From contig JASCQW010000112.1 in the NCBI GenBank assembly GCA_030264375.1, forward strand, positions 27,749,105-27,812,388: 63,284 nt of DNA, written 5' to 3'. The position numbers were made by a program, and so were the translations under genes. Origin of the DNA: Carcharhinus longimanus (lineage: Eukaryota). This document shows positions 9,643 to 62,403 of the stretch, piece after piece. The number at the start of each line of letters is the position of its first letter. Within the stretch, counting starts at the first letter, position 1. A model generated the notes under the pieces. That model was not told the DNA's origin, did no database searches, and worked only from the letters and a program-made list of their open reading frames with translations.

Positions 9643-10012
9643 GTTCTAGAACAGAATGAAGGCCATTTCATCCTAACAGGGCTGCGATTCTTCCCAATAT
9701 CGAGCTTGAAATACTATCTTGCATAATTCCCTTCAATGCTAAGCATCTTTAAAAAAAAAATTCATCCAATAGTGAGAATCGAAAAAGAGAAGTGTCAGAC
9801 TAAAATCTCAGGTGTTGATTCCTTTTGAGTCAGCCAGGATCCAATAAAATATCAATATGCAAAAAACTGGCCATCCTTTTATCAGATACTGAGAAACCTG
9901 CTGGAGAATTTCAGCAGTTAGTTCTTTTTATTTGCACTAAACTTCTTGTGCAAAGGAGGGAAACGGCATTGGACAATGGTATGCTACAGAGCAACAGGCA
10001 GCATAGTTCACA

Positions 10013-10490
10013 GGGGAGGCAATGGCCTAGTGGTATTATTGCTGGACCATTAATCCAGAAACTCAACTAATGCTTTGGGGACCTGGGTTTGAATCCCGCT
10101 ATGGCAGCTGGTGGAATTTGAATTAAATAAAAAATATCTGGACTTAAAATCTAATGATGACCACAAAATCATCATCAATGGTCTGAAAAACCCATCTGGT
10201 CCACCAATATCCTTCAGGAAAGGAAATCTGCCATTCTTGACAAAGGGTCATCTGGACTCGAAACATCAGCTTTTTTCTCTCCTGCTGAGATTTTCCAGCA
10301 TTTTCTCTTTTGGTTTCAGATTCCAACATCTGCAGTAATTTGCTCTTATCCTTGCCTGGCCTGGCCTACATGTCACTCCTGAGCCACAGCAATGTGGTTG
10401 ACGCTCAACTGCCCTCAAAGGGCAATTAGGGACGGGCAGTAACAGTTGGCCAACCAGCATGGCCCATGTCCCACGAATGAATAAAAGACT
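10013..10490 (+). mobile_element. tRNA-derived SINE (second family), interrupted by a Penelope-like fragment at ~10237-10347
   Basis: A/B boxes (tggcctagtgg, gggtttgaatccc); homologous uninterrupted copies at ~25810-26150 and ~38910-39270. Confidence 0.75.
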
Positions 10491-11373
10491 AAATCTAGCA
10501 ACCCAGTTAAATTACCCACTGATCCCAATGAACTTGTGCTCCCCAATCCCCAACGCACTTGAACTATCATAACCAATGGTGCCACGAATTGAGCCAACTT
10601 GCATAAAATTGTCCATTAAAACAGGAAGCAATGCTCCATGAAGATCTTTACTGTGAATTATCCAATAATTAGATGGTGTTTCTGCAGTTGACAACGTGTT
10701 ATCCATAACAATATAGGACTCTAAACCCTAAACCCAATCCAGTAGCCTAAGCCGACATGGGCTGAAGTTTAAACACCAACTCTAATTTACTGCCTGGAGT
10801 CAACCCAGGAGGGAACTTGCTCCATAATGGACACACTATCCTTCCACATGCATTAATAGTACATTCTAAAGATAAGAACTGGGTCACAAGAGGGGGGAAA
10901 TAAAATCACTTAATTCAACAAATGCACAATAAGAGTTTTGTTCCTTCTCTGTTCTGCAAGCAGCTCAGTGCGAGATTCTGGCCAGCCCTGCCTGGCACGC
11001 GTCAGCGCCACTGCACACTGCTGTCTGTGCTAATTAAAGGGCAGCCTGACCCAATTAAATCTGCACAGGCTGAAAGATCACTTACCGTTTCATCTAACGC
11101 TCTGTTTCTTTGGCCACCGTAGTGGTATTAACTATTCTGGAAAATGCAGAGCCTGGGCAAGTGGAACTGAAACCCCATAGAGCTTTAAAATTCTATCTGG
11201 GGCACTTGCAGCAAATTGCTCACGTTAATTTTGAAGCTCTATGGACAATAAAGCTTTAAACCGGCCCACAGCACCTTCACTGGGAAAGCTGAACAGAGTA
11301 TTTGGTGGCAGGAGAGGTTCAATATTTCCTGGTCAATCCCAGATACTGGGACACAGCCAATTCCAACATTGCC

Positions 11374-11589
11374 CTCATCTTCCCTGCTCCAGGCTCAGAC
11401 TGGGATCACATTCCAGGAATGTTCTCATCCTCTCTGCTCCAGGCTCAGACTCCAGAAATGTCCTCACCCTCTCTGCTCCATGATTAGACTGGGATCGGAC
11501 ACCAGGAATGTCCTCACCCTCTCTGCTCCATGTTCAGACTGGCATCACATTCCAGGAATGTCCTCACCCTCTCTGCTCCAAGATCAGAC
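11374..11589. repeat. 50-bp minisatellite, ~4.5 copies
   Basis: Units start at 11374, 11424 (39 bp, deleted), 11463, 11513 and 11563. Confidence 0.9.
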
Positions 11590-11726
11590 GTTTAAGATCA
11601 GACGTTTAGATTGAAAAAATGAACAGCAGCAGCAGCTAAAGTTTCATTCCACAAGAGAAAACACTGGAAAATCTCAATAGGTCTGGCAGCATCTGTAAGG
11701 AGCGAAAAGAGCTGACGTTTTGAGTC

Positions 11727-11891
11727 CAAAGTAAAAAGTCTGACAACACCAGGCTTTAGTCCAACCTATTTATTTGATAATCTAACCCGAAAGCTAGTGA
11801 GTATATTATCAAATAAATAGGTTGGACTAAAACCTGGTGTTGTCAGACTTTTTACTTTGTTTACGCCAGTCCAATGCCGGCATACCCACAT
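11727..11891. mobile_element. Penelope-like terminal repeat in fold-back form
   Basis: 55-bp arms 11727-11781 and 11805-11859 (1 mismatch); same family as 57682-57812 and 55200-55280. Confidence 0.7.
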
Positions 11892-26150: not shown

Positions 26151-26575
26151 TTAATTTTAAAAACAAATCAAACTGAGGCTCTGCATTTAGGAAAGTCTTA
26201 CATTTAGAACTGCATACTTCAAGTTGCAAAAATAAAATTATATATTCAGCCAATTTATGTTGCTAAAATATAGTACCAAAACAAAACGAGATTTCAAATG
26301 TGTTATAAAAGGAAAACATACAGCATGTACAGCAATATCTAAAAATAGAAGTGCAGACCATTCTTCGACGCTGCTGATTGGCCTGCTGTTGCATTTTGAC
26401 ATTTTTCTTTTTCTATTTGAGATTTCTAGCATCTGCAGTTTGATTTAACATCTCCAGCACAAGTATTGAATGATTCTTATACTATTGAATAATTCTGACA
26501 GCGTATAACAAACCCCATTTAATGGGTAATAATTTAGAATTTAAGACAGAACACATGACCATCTCCTCTCATTAC

Positions 26576-30824: not shown

Positions 30825-31450
30825 CTGATTGGGTTTAATAAAATAACTTATTAAAAAAATACATAAACCTATAAATCATAGTCATATATAATATTAATTG
30901 AGCAAATCACACTTTGGAAAAGAAGCTTAAAGAAATAGACCATCATTTCTGACGATATGGATAAAGTCTTACCAAAATGTGGTGGAGTGCTGTTTCAGGC
31001 AAGAAAACCAACATGTTTCTGTCCAGATTCTACCACACTCAACCAAAATAAAAATCAAGGAGTGTGACTGGCACTCCTCACTTGTCTATCCGCTCCCTGC
31101 CCACAACTACATTTGCATTAAAACCCCCTTCCCCCCATAGAATTCCCACAGGGAACACAGCTTGACAGGTTGGCATGATGCAATCTGTGCCAAGGAGCAG
31201 TGCCATGGGTATTGTCAGGACCATGTCCCTTGTTCCCCGGGGGGCTATGCTTACCTTTATGACCTTGAGACTTCTATGGCAGATTCACATCTGTGTGAAC
31301 CTACTGTAAACCATGCCGACATGACATCATGTTGATGTAGTCTGAAGGTAGGGCAAGGGGTCAAGATATGGCAAGGGAGCTTGTTAATTATATACCAGTT
31401 AAACAGTAAAAATTGTGTTTCTGGTTTGCAAAAATGAATGGAAAGCTCAT

Positions 31451-31682
31451 CAAAAGAGAAAATGCTGGAAAACCCCGCAAGTCTGGAAGCATCTGTAAGG
31501 AGAATGAAGGGCTGACATCAAGTCGAGATGACCTTTTTTGTCAAACCTTTGACAAAGGGTCATCTGGATTTGAAATGTCAATTCTTTTCCTTCCTTACAG
31601 ATGTTACGAGGTCTGCTGAGATTTTCCAGCATTTTCTCTTTTGGTTTCAGATTCCAGCATCTGCAGTAATTTGCTTTTATCT
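31451..31682. mobile_element. Penelope-like fold-back element with apparent 14-bp target-site duplication
   Basis: Imperfect palindrome 31451-31643; flanks aatggaaagctcat (31437-31450) and aatagaaagcttat (31683-31696). Confidence 0.7.
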
Positions 31683-32669
31683 AATAGAAAGCTTATAACA
31701 TTATCAAAAGACAACTGTAAAGTGATAGCTATCACTATTCAAATGAAGATTATTCACCTCATGATACTTCTAATCTTTGAAATTTCACCAGTAATTTAAT
31801 GAATCTGAAAGACTGAATGAATGATTTCAAAAGAGACCTGTTTGACACATCCATGGAAAAAAACAGAAAAAAAGGATACAAAGTACATGCAGACACCATC
31901 TGTTTTGTGGAGCAGCTCACGGCGATGTTAAAGCAAAACAATTATTGAACAATGATGACATGCCCTGCAGTAGAACCTGGCTAAGGTACCCAAGATCCAA
32001 GTATGCTGCAGTTTGCACAATTTTACCAAAGTGGTGTTATCAATGTGATGGGTGAGAAAATGGAATGTAAAGCCTTCTGTTAGCCAAGGTCAAATGGTAT
32101 TATTCTGCCTGTGGCCATGCTCCAGCCATTATTCCTCCCTAGCAACCAGATAACTTTTAAGGAACTAAGTACGTGCTTAGGGGCATTAAAATAGATGGTG
32201 CATTATCAGTATCATGAGCTGATACAATTGACAGGTTGGTAGTTTTTAAGGACAAAGGAAAAGAAAATCTTGTGAATTTCTTCTAATTTTACACAATGTT
32301 TACACAATAGATATAAAATTAAATGAAAAACAATAGTGCTTTTTCTGGTTCGAGGAACAGCATCATGCATGGTGATAGGGAAGTCAATAGCTTAACCAAA
32401 TCACCCAACAGATTCACTTGCACAAACTACCTTCCTTTAAAAGATGCGCACTGTGAAAAATGCGTGACAAACACCTTTTTTGCCAATATAACTGAAAAGC
32501 ATAAAATGTATTACCATTCTTACATGGTAGCTACAAACTTTTTTAAATTCCTCTTAGAATAAAAATGCCGAATTCAATTTTAAAAAGGTTAGGATGAGCA
32601 AATAATTTCTCTGGAAACGCTTCAGAATCTTCTGTCATAAATTTTTTTCCATGGGCTTTCTTATATTAC

Positions 32670-41211: not shown

Positions 41212-43294
41212 CTACCAAAGAAAACAAACTACGGATAATTAAATACAATAAATTAAAATCTTTTCCTCTGAGGTTTCAGGTTGTTCATTATAACAGACAA
41301 ATTGGAAAGCTAATAGCAAATCTTATACACCCCAGAGCTAAAAAGATTCACTACAAATTTATAAAGATAATGTTTCAAACATAAGTATTAAATATACCTT
41401 CCAACACAAATTAGAATATCTTTAGAAATGGACAAAACCTGACATGTGCATATGCACTACTCAATTTAAAAAACATACATCTAGAATAGATCATAACTGC
41501 AATTTAAAAGTAAAAACACTGAAAAAAAATTCAATTTATGGACTTCAAATCGATGACTGGCATCTGTATTGTATCTAATCTAATAACACTGGGCTCAATT
41601 TAACAGGACTTGTCAAGGAACTTGAAGAAAGCAGCCCACAAAGATTAAGCGATTTCTGTGGTTTGGATTTCCCTTTTCCCAATGTCAGTTCGCAAATGGT
41701 GCAATGTCAAGGGGGCCTTCTGGAGTCCACCAACAACATGGTACCATTAAATAGGCTAAGCAATGAATCACATTAAGGTATGCTCACAGACAGTAAACTA
41801 CAAAGTAAAACGCAATGATATTTTGTTTTATTAAACACAAGGTGGGAATGCACACATGGGATTAATGTGGAACTTGAAATATCAAACTACGAAAAGGAAT
41901 ATCTTAAATATGTGAATTATCATAATGGAGAATTTTGATATTTCAAAAATACAAAATTAGCTTTGCAGGGCCAATGAGCTGGTTCCGCAGTGATTGTGGA
42001 CTTAGTACACAGTTATAAACCCAGCTAAACCTTATTCAATAAGATACCATCTATCCAAAGGTGTTCACAGGAAGACTAACAGCATAGAAGGTCAAGTTTT
42101 TAGTGATTGTACATCCTGAGGGAAACATAAAATCAATGATACAACTTCTAGATTTCAGTGTTTCAACGAAAGCTAACAGTTTTGCAGCCATCACAACTGC
42201 AAATTGGGCCATTCTTAACTGAATTTCAGCACATGCTATTGCAAAATATAGTCTCCCAAGTTCAATAAGAATGAAAAGATTTATTTATTCATCATAAGTT
42301 TCCCTAGAAGAAATTATGAGAAACAAAAAAAAAGTGCTACACCAGTGACATATGATTCTGTACATCATTAACTAAAAAACTGTTTCAACATTTATTGATT
42401 ATGTTACACTGCTTCACCTCAACTACATCTAGTTTAGAACAAAGAACAACACAGCACGGGAAACAGGCCCTTCAGCCCAACGAGCCCACGCCACCATTTT
42501 AACATTATGAGTGCCCTCCTCTACCCATGACCTTTGTCTACACCTACTGGGGAAGGTTGAGGGAAGACTAATTTAGGGACAATTTGTTACACCAATCAGC
42601 CTAAGAGCACATTTTTGGGTTGTGGGAGGAAACCAGAGCACCCGGAGAAAACCCACACAATCACGGGGAGAACGTGCAAACTCCCGCAGACACCGGCCCA
42701 AATCCATGTATCTGCACAGCAAACAGTGATAGTCACTGAGCTGTCATGTTGCCCGACAGATGGTCCAGTTTAAGCATACACTAACGATGTGAAGTACTGG
42801 GCAACTCTCGAAGCAACATCCAAGAGCAGGCCTCGCACGACCCACCACGTGTATGCCCNNNNNNNNNNNNNNNNNNNNNNNNNNNNNNNNNNNNNNNNNN
42901 NNNNNNNNNNNNNNNNNNNNNNNNNNNNNNNNNNNNNNNNNNNNNNNNNNNNNNNNNNCGCAAGCACGGGGAGAATGCGCAAACTCCCACAGACACCGAC
43001 CCAAATCCATGTATCTGCACAGCAAACAGTGATAGCCACTGAGCTGTCATGTTGCCCGTCAGATGGTCCAGTTTAAGCGTACATGAACAACATGAAGCAC
43101 TAGGCAACTCTGGAAGCAACAGCCAAGAGCAGCCCTCGCACGACCCATCACGTGTACGCCCCTTGTTACTCATGTACAAAAAACATCCTACAGGGATTTA
43201 GTAGTGTTGCATATGAGCAGATCATGCTTTCATTTCTCTTACCTAGGTTTGAACCTGGTCCAATTAGTCATTTGCTAGGACTGAAATTGAGTAT

Positions 43295-43927
43295 TGCTGG
43301 AAAAAAATACATTTTGTGAAAGCTTTTCATCTTGCACTCATCAGAACAATCACAAAAATACCATAAACAGGAGAAATAACTCTGTACTGTACTCGAGTGC
43401 TGATTAATTGGCAAGTGGACTCCGATTTTTAGAGGCATTGCCATGGAGCATGTCCCAGCTAATGGAAACTGACAGTTAACTGCTAAGCATTATTTGAAAA
43501 TTTAAACCAGGCAGCATGATTCTGATCAATCAAGCAGTGAACCAGAAAATAATTATTACATATTTTGATTAGCTGAAATAGGCACAATGTATGCATATGT
43601 TCTTTCTGTCTTCAAAGAACAGGACACTGCGCATTAATAAATGTAGCTTCCAGCACACGGAAATGCACACACTGTGAGGCCGACTGTCAATCTTAACTTT
43701 GTTGTCAGCGTACGTTTTAATACAGTGAGGATTATTTAGCAATTGTTGTCCAATTACAGAATTATCTCTAAAGTTGGACACGGTACTTTGCGTTTTTGGA
43801 AGCACGGGCTAGGTATACTCTGCAGCTTGCCAACTGCAAACAGCAGAAGGGACATGCTATTTGATGCAATCCACCAGTCTCTGGGACATACATCCTAAAT
43901 ACCTGGCATCACCCTGGCACTGAAATG
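43295..43927 (-). mobile_element. Penelope-like element 3' remnant (GIY-YIG endonuclease plus terminal repeat), copy 1
   Basis: Minus translation FQCQGDARYLGCMSQRLVDCIK*HVP ... LEATFINAQCPVL; hammerhead-like motif at 43314-43349. Confidence 0.75.
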
Positions 43928-44394
43928 CCTGGTTCCAACTGAAATGCTCTGAACATTGCGCAGCAACAGATTATGATGTGAATGAAAGAAATTGTAAAAA
44001 TGCTCGTGCTTAGGAGATGCAGTCCTGATCACAAAACAAATTCATTATTACACGCTTATGTCCCACTGCTGAGATAGCAGGTACTTAAGTGGGAGACAAC
44101 TTCTGTACNNNNNNNNNNNNNNNNNNNNNNNNNNNNNNNNNNNNNNNNNNNNNNNNNNNNNNNNNNNNNNNNNNNNNNNNNNNNNNNNNNNNNNNNNNNN
44201 NNNNNNNNCTCTCGAAGCAACATCCAAGAGCAGGCCTCGCACGACCCACCACGTGTATGCCCCTTGTTACTCATGTACAAAAACATCCTTCAGGGATTTA
44301 ATAGTGTTGCATATGAGCAGATCATGCTTTCATTTCTCATACCTAGGTTTGAACCTGGTCCAATTAGTCATTTGCTACTACAGAAATTGAGTAT

Positions 44395-45025
44395 TGCTGG
44401 AAAAAAATACATTTTGTTAAAGCTTTTCATCTTGCACTCATCAGGACAAAAATACCATAAACAGGAGAAATAACTATGTACTGTACTAGAGTGCTGATTA
44501 ATTGGCAAGTGGACTCTGATTTTTAGAGGTATTGCCATGGAGCATGTCCCAGTTAATGGAAACTGGCAGTTAACTACTAAGCATTATTTGAAAATTTAAA
44601 CCAGGCAGCATTGTTCTGATCGATCAAGCAGTGAACCAGAAAATGATCATTACATATTTTGATTAGCTGAGCAGGCACAATGTATACATATGTTCTTTCT
44701 GTCTTCAAAGAACAGGACACTGCGCATTAATAAATGTGGCTTCCAGCACACAGAAATGCACACACTGTGAGACCAACTGTCAATCTTAACTTCGTTGTCA
44801 GCGTACGTTTTAATACACTGAGGATTATTTAGCAACTGTTGTCTAATTACAGAATTATATCTAATGTTGGACACTGTATTTTGAGTTTTTGAAAGCACGG
44901 GCTAGGTATAGTCTACAGCTTGCCAACTGCAAACAGCAGAAGGAAGGGACATGCTGTTTGATGCAATCCACCAGTCTCAGGGACATACAGCCTAAATACG
45001 TGGCATCACACTGGCACTGAAATGC
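44395..45025 (-). mobile_element. Penelope-like element 3' remnant, copy 2
   Basis: FQCQCDATYLGCMSLRLVDCIKQHVP; hammerhead-like motif at 44412-44451. Confidence 0.75.
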
Positions 45026-45928
45026 CTGGTTCTGACTGAAATGCTCTGAACATTACACACCAACATATTATGACGTTAGTTAAAGAAATTTTAAAAATAC
45101 TAGTGCTTAGGAGGTGCAGTCCTGATCACAAAACAAATTCATTATTATACACTTATGTCCCACTACTGCAATAGCAGGTACATAAGTAGGAGTCAACTTC
45201 TGTACAAAACAAGGCAAGAATGATTAAAGCTGCAACTTATACCACTGAACCCAAGAAAATAAATGCCAGCAGGCTCAAAAATCACAGCTCTAACGTGTGA
45301 AATGTCACATTAATGCAGGGGTGGGGTGGATTGTAAGTGTTCATCATCTGAAATTGGATCAAAGGGAACTTTGTACTGAAGCAAACCTTGCTACATGTTT
45401 GATGCCAATACAAAATGCATGGAAGAGGAAACTATTCATTTCTCATCAAAATTATTCCTCATTTTTCACTGGCATATTGGCTTGATCACTTTTGTTGACT
45501 CAGTCACTGTCCTTTCCTTTGAAGATGCACCTGACCCTCCCAGTCATAGCACTGTGAAGATCAGGAAGTGGCTGTGTGGGGAAAAATACAGATGCCAACC
45601 CACATGCTCATCTTTTCAGGCACCGCAATAACCCAAAAATCCAAATATAAAACGCGATTAAACTATTACGAGTTCTTGCTTCACTTATTTTAACCACGAA
45701 TGTGAGTTAAATTTTCTTGGTTGATTTACCTAAATCCATCACTCACTCTCAGTTAATTGTTACCAGTCATGTTGGTGATATTCTAAGTCTATCTTAACCA
45801 GAACAACTTACTGTTACTCCAGCCCATTTAATAACTGAATTATCAAAATTAGTAGTGTGTAGAGGTGGATTAGTCCAATTCAATTAGAGCCCATTCTACA
45901 TGTATACAATACATACCACACAACCTAC

Positions 45929-60529: not shown

Positions 60530-60775
60530 TTCTTTTCTTGTCCCATTTCCACTCCCTCTGTTTTTGCACCATTAAATTCTGTAATTTAATCTCTCCTGTC
60601 CTCTACCCTAACGGAGGCATTTTTTTCATTCTTCTTCCTACCCATTCCACTTCAAAACCTATTACATTTTCCCAGTGCTGATGTATGACCACAGACCTGA
60701 AACATTAACTTTGTTTCTCTATAAAGATAGTGCTGGATCTGCTGATTTCCAGCATTTTCTGTTTTAATTTCAAAT
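60530..60775 (+). mobile_element. old Penelope-like terminal repeat remnant
   Basis: ctgatgt...gacctgaaacattaac followed by gctgatttccagcattttctgtttt, similar to the 31451 family tail. Confidence 0.5.
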
Positions 60776-62403
60776 TTGATATAGTGAGCCTTCAAGGTAA
60801 GGATATCTTTGGAACACCTCAGATATTCATGCTTGAATTTTTGTTTTGTTGCGCTACTTGTGAAAACAGGCCATTTTGCTCAATGAGTCTATTTAGGCAT
60901 TTATTCGCCACAAAAGAAAATAGTGCTAGCCACACTTAGCTGTCCTGTTCCGATATCCCAGTTTTCTTTATATATCTGTAATTTTACATTAAATGTTGCC
61001 ATATCCTCAGGTCTCTGTAAAAAGGCCCTTTTCATTCTCTAAATATTTCAGAGGCGAGCTTACTAGATTCACGCCCGGTTTCTCGCTTCTCGCGATCTTG
61101 CCAGCTCTGGATACTTAAATATTATTAGTGAGTCTCAGATGCAATTGCCCAGGCTTACTTGTCTTAATGACCTCACTGGTAGAGGTCCTCACCAGTAAGG
61201 ATTTGGTCCCCATCAATGGGGAGCTGATGTGATGGCCTCTCCGGTGGGACGGGATGCCATTGAGGCCCAGGTGCAGGGCCTAAGGGGAGGTTAGGGGGAG
61301 GATGTGCATTCAGCAATTGGGGCAGCAAGTCAACCGGGCCAGGAGGTTGGGGATGATCAGCTGGGGAGGCCAGCGAACAGGCTGAGGGGGAAAACTGACA
61401 GATCTCTCTGCTCTGTTGCACATATCATGATAGTACAAAGATCATGATAGTACCCTCTTCTGCGAGCAACTAGTTTTCTGCTGAGAATAGACTCCATCCA
61501 TTTGCTCTACTGGCATGAATCATATTTCACCTCTTTTTTTGCACAAAGTGCCATTAGATTGTGTCTGAAGGCTTGCTGAAAAAATGGGCGTGATTTTCTC
61601 CCATTTTCATGCTCATTCAGCACTTAGAATTTAAGCACCCCCCCACCCTCCATTGCATTTCATTTGGCTTCTATTATGCCTCACTTTAGACCCCACAACC
61701 ATTACAAACTGTATACTTTATCTACTTCATGGTATTTCTATACAAGTTATTTTTAACATCAACCCCATAATCAGAATTATACCCACTGTAAAACCTCAAT
61801 ATCATTCCTGCAACTTGGAAGTGAATACCACAATCAGTACTCTAACTGACATCTTATAAGCCCATCATTACTATTGGCTTGTGTTTTGTATATATATAGA
61901 ATTCCATTAATGTTTTGGCTTTTAAAATAATCTAATCAACCCGAGGTCAAAGTCATAGAGCAATGCAGCATGGAAACACCATGGTGTTGCCTAAAATGTT
62001 TCGTGAGCCTGTACCCCTTCCAAAATCCCCAAGTTTTCCCAGTGCACTAAGCCTATTTCCCTTGAATATATTTACTCCTATTATAATTTTAAAGTCAAAA
62101 TGTCTTGTCTCACACTTGCTGACACTAAATTAGAGTTGCCATTTTAAGCCCACTATCTCAAACTTATCAATATCATTTTTTAGTTTCCTTTGGCATGCTA
62201 AAGAATTGAGCTTTACTTCCTGTTTTGAAGTCATCGACAGGCTATTTCTACAGCTATATACAATTCAGCAATATACACTGGAAAGCATGAGCAGAGGCAA
62301 AAATGATATCTGAAACGGAGATCCAATTACAGAATATGGGAAATTAACTGGCAGAGAAGAGGTAGGCTTGGCATCACAAGGAAATAATACTACAAGAGTC
62401 TAC

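Follow-up and report, generated by a model that had tools for sequence, protein, structure and literature searches.

A fold-back stub in Carcharhinus longimanus points to a Penelope-like retrotransposon subfamily founded with a U3-A8 minimal hammerhead

The element at positions 31437-31696 of the window, i.e., of the whole 63,284-nt stretch of Carcharhinus longimanus DNA analysed here, is probably a dead fold-back stub left by a Penelope-like retrotransposon (PLE) subfamily that bears an endonuclease and was founded with a U3-A8 minimal hammerhead. U3-A8 is the founder state of this subfamily rather than the outcome of copy decay. Judged from sequence, there is a good chance that the founder core was competent and acted on RNA that did not serve as template, and that it is dead in the copies of the window.

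Architecture and decay of the window copies

The element body (31451-31682) consists of two PLE terminal-repeat fragments in head-to-head orientation, flanked by a 14-bp target-site duplication. The left duplicate (31437-31450) adjoins the end of the inverted arm and pairs with the right duplicate (31683-31696). Both adjoin the element ends and are identical in 12/14 positions with two transitions, just as a preliminary description of this DNA had claimed. The imperfect palindrome reported there is confirmed as well: the reverse self-match of 31451-31643 reaches 76% over 202 columns (E 9e-30). Its centre is 31545-31548, which reads ACCT here and AGCT in most relatives, so the central 'cc' results from one point change within the 4-bp palindrome common to both arms. 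These four bases provide the 5' strand of helix I for both arms, and we infer that they mark the RNA 5' end.

The inverted terminal-repeat (pLTR) arm (31451-31548, minus strand) covers family positions +1 to +99 and has no tail. The direct pLTR arm (31545-31682, plus strand) covers +1 to +136 and alone carries the 'tail' of about 36 bp (31645-31682, plus strand) between the preferred 3' ends (+100, +136); tails of this kind are described in passages of PMC8557442 and PMC11167929.

Both arms begin with a decayed minimal hammerhead. The type I motif of the right arm (31545-31583, plus strand) reads as it had been quoted, with the U3-A8 core TTGACAA at 31549-31555, GAAA at 31572-31575 and the cleavage triplet (GTC, i.e., GUC in RNA) at 31577-31579. 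Helix II (31557-31571), however, had been taken to start at an A; an extra A (31556) separates A9 from G10.1, and helix II therefore begins at the G. In the left arm (31510-31548, minus strand), TTGACAA is retained (31544-31538) while GAAA is lost. Within the window (31547-31557), the U3 and A8 changes make the core a perfect 5-bp inverted repeat around A6.

A second copy of the subfamily is located at 10237-10347 (plus strand) inside another repeat; it consists of one arm, which has the tail but lacks 19 bp internally. Its sequence is as quoted, and the earlier caution that the first TT may be host DNA was correct, since a probable 6-bp target duplication (10233-10238 / 10348-10353) includes this TT as its final two bases (10237-10238). 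The minus-strand fragment seen near 11705-11727 also belongs to the subfamily (11649-11728, 5'-truncated) but lacks core positions 3-9; because positions 3, 8 and G12 are absent, it has no bearing on the core. With regard to the minimal-hammerhead descriptor, the right arm breaks helix I, G10.1-C11.1 and the 15.2/16.2 pair, the 10237 copy breaks helix I and the 15.2/16.2 pair, and intact core and helices are found in neither of these two, nor in the left arm or the 11705 fragment. That is, every core in the window fails the descriptor, in line with the decay that had been suspected for the individual copies. An Rfam scan of the window yielded no hammerhead family at E<=1.

The window holds further repeats. 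A near-perfect hairpin at 11727-11859 (58-bp arms, 97%) adjoins the 11649-11728 fragment and seems to be a fold-back that stems from another PLE family and retains part of a GAAA in its loop; weak Rfam miRNA matches there are merely the hairpin. Immediately upstream of the same fragment, 11363-11589 is a minisatellite of about 50 bp. Related families have left terminal-repeat remnants with no scorable core at 60690-60780, 26360-26440 and 9860-9920, which are older and more diverged, and a tandem repeat of about 1.1 kb with 90-95% identical units covers 42658-45205.

Parent element

The proposed PLE origin is borne out by the relatives of the element, which combine an ORF for reverse transcriptase (RT) and GIY-YIG endonuclease (EN) with the same terminal repeat. 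In copies reaching upstream, a decayed ORF shows RT motifs and a GIY-YIG domain joined by a C-x4-C-x2-C linker, and in these relatives (the window stub has no ORF) the RT motifs and the YIG motif share one reading direction. Pfam matched 6/8 fragments, with best E-values of 1.5e-4 for RVT_1 and 0.001 for GIY-YIG, both below the curated cut-offs. For three earlier, poorer fragments no Pfam match was obtained, and a PDB sequence search with one fragment returned only two unrelated decarboxylases (E 0.74). Among 35 loci selected by ORF, 23 are orientable and 21 have a hammerhead, with U3 in 20/20 downstream cores.

Locus L208 is a complete unit, composed of inverted repeat, partial tandem, ORF and terminal repeat with 3228 bp between the hammerheads. 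Its arrangement equals the layout published for endonuclease-bearing PLEs in passages of PMC3846280 and PMC8557442. Partial tandems that make up pseudo-LTRs, often with an inverted 5' copy, are observed in L208, L207, L209, L142, L160 and L172. The C-x4-C-x2-C motif between RT and EN can be read in L143, L148, L156, L170 and others; a section of PMC8557442 reports the cysteine linker motif for Neptune and also for Nematis. This motif points to the Neptune or Nematis clade.

Six loci (L016, L048, L053, L059, L293, L335) belong to a further PLE-type hammerhead family, in which the cores have C3 and helix I is 3 bp long; its C3-A8 copies resemble CpG decay.

Founder state and selection on the fold

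We counted exact 16-mers ending in the common helix II start throughout the 2.68-Gb assembly. Here, TTGACAA occurs 4573 times, CTGACAA 2254 times, CTGACGA 1543 times and TTGACGA 204 times. Linked differences among the copies separate two subfamilies, namely the U3-A8 subfamily of the window and a C3-G8 sister. For each of the two backgrounds, we left positions 3, 7 and 8 open and counted 100 listed matches by hand; in each case, these are the matches at the head of the listing, largely from one or two contigs and not drawn at random. Among the matches listed for the U background (100 of 1558), 91 are U3-A8, 4 U3-G8, 2 C3-A8, 0 C3-G8 and 3 other; U3 is present in 96, and positions 7-8 read CA in 89 and TG in 1. 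Among those listed for the C background (100 of 1245), C3 is present in 90, and positions 7-8 read CG in 25, TG in 37, CA in 29 and otherwise in 9. The CA:TG counts of these first-listed samples, i.e., 89:1 vs. 29:37, are significantly different (Fisher p ~1e-16).

In a core-blind sample anchored downstream of the ribozyme and likewise taken from the head of the listing, U3-A8 is found in 47/51 scorable copies (90 fetched). The suggested co-occurrence of U3 and A8 in the founder is thereby upheld: helices I and II are intact in the family majority, which is not CTGANGA and forms a 4-bp helix I. The recurrence of U3-A8 in both arms and in the 10237 copy is real, too, but reflects the inheritance of one event and no independent covariation. 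Contigs of four sequencing runs (four organisms) align to a U3-A8 copy, which speaks for presence only; among the matches listed, neither position 3 nor position 8 shows an alternative letter at the 10% level, given an 80% likeness filter that favours the U3-A8 subfamily. Among the sequencing runs listed as containing the sequence, none is an RNA run.

The majorities of the two subfamilies differ at six of the 39 motif positions, namely 3, 8, 17, 1.1 and two bases of loop II. Each of these differences is compatible with the hammerhead descriptor and both majorities pass it, while random six-change sets pass in 0.25-0.28% of a neutral simulation. A Watson-Crick swap at 3 and 8 arises by chance in 1.1-2.4% of the simulated six-change sets. 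The direction of change follows from the sister, whose terminal repeat is at a distance of about 10%. Divergence within the subfamilies is 7.7% (n=38 of 40) vs. 8.6% (n=35 of 40), such that their age order is not separated (p=0.14), and the direction is hence read off the general C3-G8 consensus. An intermediate subfamily did not turn up; the 20 U3-G8 and 20 C3-A8 copies inspected sort by eye onto the two known backgrounds. The master lineage would have passed from C3-G8 to U3-A8 via two transitions, one of them at a CpG, in either order.

TTGACAA might instead have arisen copy by copy through decay of CTGACGA, i.e., CpG loss at G8 combined with C-to-T at position 3. The large number of C3-A8 16-mers fits this idea, and 4/100 C-background copies among the matches listed did arrive at U3-A8 in this way. 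Yet CpG decay is roughly symmetric, as seen in the sister, and the U background has a single TG beside its 89 CA, which led us to reject per-copy decay. Furthermore, the two other CpGs of the motif are retained in about half of the copies (17/34 and 15/34), and U3 is kept in nearly all U-background copies listed; we consider such an origin extremely improbable. A neutral swap, in which the master no longer needed its ribozyme and a successful master copy took both transitions along, carries more weight but still appears unlikely. It would agree with G8 being within a hypermutable CpG, with the lack of any 5' end at the cleavage site (see below) and, following portions of the respective papers, with hammerhead mutants that leave anole PLE insertion in vitro unaffected (PMC11167929) and with PLE clades that thrive without canonical hammerheads (PMC8557442). 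In a variant of this explanation, the perfected inverted repeat with 5-bp arms around A6 could have been favoured otherwise, e.g., for cDNA self-priming, and four fold-backs (L025, L043, L050, L051) are indeed centred on the core inverted repeat. The C3-G8 sister, however, lacks the perfect repeat and forms fold-backs at a similar rate (15/47 vs. 21/55). Neutrality is also at odds with six out of six motif differences preserving the fold (about 0.003), and a single template switch cannot yield both changes because, by sequence logic, they are on opposite arms of the inverted repeat.

It is thus likely that the U3-A8 swap was kept by selection on the predicted self-cleaving fold. The evidence for selection is good but short of conclusive, since the swap is one event and a promoter constraint may overlap; that is, part of the constraint on the fold could stem from promoter elements overlapping +1 to +39.

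Copy ends and fold-back formation

We assessed 5' ends in 90 downstream-anchored copies, 11 of which were dropped for N, leaving 79 informative ones. Most of them (41/79) have their end at -6 to +5 of helix I; 15 reach beyond this range upstream, and the remaining 23 begin only after +5. No U copy (0/79) and one C copy (1/30, at +38) end at the cleavage site (+34 to +38). Fold-back arms starting at +34 to +36 (5/180) are at about the local background by hand count. A fossil trace of cutting is therefore absent. Where a TATAAA-like motif is present in the 45 nt upstream, its position is exactly -30 in 41/50 U and 7/13 C copies. Given the clustering of 5' ends and this spacing, we infer an RNA start at helix I; judged by the motif spacing, the first nucleotide of element RNA would also be the first of helix I and come 30 nt behind the TATA box. 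Clear target duplications are present in 4/17 simple copies, compared to 1.5% in the control.

The 3' ends are bimodal with peaks at about +100 and +136, and single-arm copies end at +100 as well. From 90 fold-backs, 11 were dropped for an N flank, leaving 79, and 22 more for a non-standard end, leaving 57. Here, 55/57 combine a long with a short arm, 2 have two long arms and 0 two short ones; the window element is a long-short fold-back, too (+99, +136). Within the proposed mechanism, reverse transcription would start internally at +100 or +136 and run to the 5' end, giving stubs of 100-136 bp. For fold-backs, priming would take place from both nicked target strands, each at one of the two starts, and the resulting cDNAs would join via the self-complementary AGCT, yielding the window element along with its 14-bp duplication. 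According to PMC11167929, the protein of the anole PLE is able to cut both strands and to extend them, with two internal sites as its starts. Among the routes to fold-backs, twin priming from the two nicked target strands with an AGCT joint fits best.

The pile-up of 5' ends could also be due to a splice acceptor, i.e., to copies made from RNA spliced at the pyrimidine tract and AG before the core. In both subfamilies, the sequence agrees with an acceptor, 7/79 ends are at +3, and the Drosophila virilis Penelope intron ends at helix I according to a section of PMC4209133. Since truncated copies show no common upstream exon and some target duplications adjoin helix I directly (L247, L048, L234), the splice reading is less likely than an RNA start at helix I; with TATAAA fixed at -30 in both subfamilies as a further counterpoint, we regard it as quite improbable. 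For the fold-back shape, the competing route is snap-back, where one cDNA or antisense template primes itself and the endonuclease trims the shorter arm at +100. Such self-priming was proposed for palindromic junctions of rotifer PLEs in part of PMC3846280, the tail is ascribed to endonuclease resolution in a passage of PMC8557442, and short hairpin remnants are visible at some junctions. On the other hand, an end at +100 is also seen in single-arm copies, and junctions sharing one AGCT have no hairpin loop (gap -4, both arms from +1; 10/90 fold-backs by hand count). Two adjacent RT starts are also shown in vitro in the portion of PMC11167929 considered. Overall, snap-back is less probable than twin priming.

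Structure and putative activity of the hammerhead

With regard to the descriptor, the family majority has all required core features, i.e., UGA-N-N-A, GAAA, an NUH triplet and a Watson-Crick 3-8 pair. It further shows a helix I of 4-5 bp, a helix II with G10.1-C11.1, an extra base after A9 and a palindromic 15.2-16.2. Predicted folding of the first 136 nt assigns pair probabilities of 0.99 to helix II and 0.41-0.85 to helix I. In the lowest-energy fold of the monomer, the core pairs with the cleavage triplet (-9.8 vs. -8.3 kcal/mol). Cofolding two monomers resulted in an alternative duplex and not in a dimeric hammerhead, using a method that cannot score the tertiary fold.

Helix III is impossible in the monomer because only two bases are found between A15.1 and U16.1. 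The ribozyme would hence cut only as a dimer or with the help of protein, and cut RNAs would not be the templates of inserted copies. According to sections of the respective papers, such minimal motifs were proposed to act as dimers with weak cleavage in vitro (PMC4209133), and the anole PLE hammerhead depends on protein, and insertion in vitro does not require this hammerhead (PMC11167929). The lack of copies that begin at the cut is consistent with weak or dimeric cleavage and with dispensability for insertion.

More speculatively, the ribozyme (transcript nt 1-39) might be a decapping switch, i.e., cap and 35 nt would be removed after protein binding or dimerisation. It would then sort element RNA and be catalytically needed, since 3-8 was swapped while the other changes kept the fold, but would not define copy ends. 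We put this forward as a tentative reading with rather low odds in its favour.

In both subfamilies, a long hairpin is predicted for +53 to +129 (about 31597-31675 in the window), in which the tail pairs with the region after the ribozyme. The +100 end is near its top and the +136 end just beyond its base, which makes it a candidate protein-binding or RT-start structure.

Significance and comparison with known systems

Whether the weak minimal hammerheads of animal PLEs act is an open question in the portions of PMC4209133, PMC8557442 and PMC11167929 considered here. Here, a compensatory change is fixed in a subfamily of thousands of copies, next to a C3-G8 sister, and concerns a pair whose importance is confined to the active tertiary fold. 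At the sequence level, this is evidence that selection acted on the fold, and the U3-A8 and C3-G8 subfamilies provide a ready matched pair for an assay. Furthermore, the stub ends offer a population-scale view of the likely RNA start and copying start, and searches for CUGANGA only overlook a large family in the Carcharhinus longimanus genome.

The preliminary description overstated the novelty of U3-A8, as the variant is published in PMC3088659 and PMC4209133. Natural U3-A8 hammerheads are mentioned as 'several examples' by Perreault et al. (2011, PMC3088659), with the statement that such covariants had proved active in vitro before, and Cervera & de la Pena (2014, PMC4209133) give about 1,300 matches for U3-A8 in PLE minimal hammerheads of Schistosoma mansoni, both in the passages considered. 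We found no vertebrate U3-A8 PLE with a C3-G8 sister in print, where most subscription papers and the repeat databases were outside the search; a passage of a retrozyme preprint (bioRxiv 10.64898/2026.07.22.740005) states that one chondrichthyan was sampled. As far as searched, the vertebrate U3-A8 case with a matched C3-G8 sister appears to be new, while variant and layout are already published in other animals.

The Perreault hammerheads show the same 3-8 covariation, but the respective passage names no PLE link, and the present motif is minimal with no helix III in the monomer. Closer are the Cercyon-related PLEs of S. mansoni. As far as the consulted portion of PMC4209133 goes, they share the type I minimal hammerhead in the terminal repeat, U3-A8, the extra nucleotide after A9, G10.1-C11.1, the palindromic 15.2-16.2, the short helix I and a dispersal in >1000 copies. 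In contrast, the family studied here resides in a 2.68-Gb genome, has the cysteine linker motif and is accompanied by a close C3-G8 sister; in the portion seen of the PMC4209133 alignment, all vertebrate rows are C3-G8.

Concerning the architecture, passages on Adineta vaga Pen2a (PMC3846280) and in PMC8557442 describe the same head-to-head inverted repeat, junction overlap, target duplication and TATA motif, as well as a tail of 30-40 bp on one end only. Compared to these endonuclease-bearing PLEs, the two arms found here are stubs of 99 and 136 bp that have no ORF and meet at helix I. The Anolis Poseidon PLE PAc, as presented in sections of PMC11167929, likewise has two preferred 3' ends bounding a tail with a hammerhead upstream, and no sign of cleaved RNA as template. 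PAc, however, is C3-G8 and belongs to the Poseidon clade, while the family of the window has the cysteine motif between RT and EN as in Neptune and Nematis.
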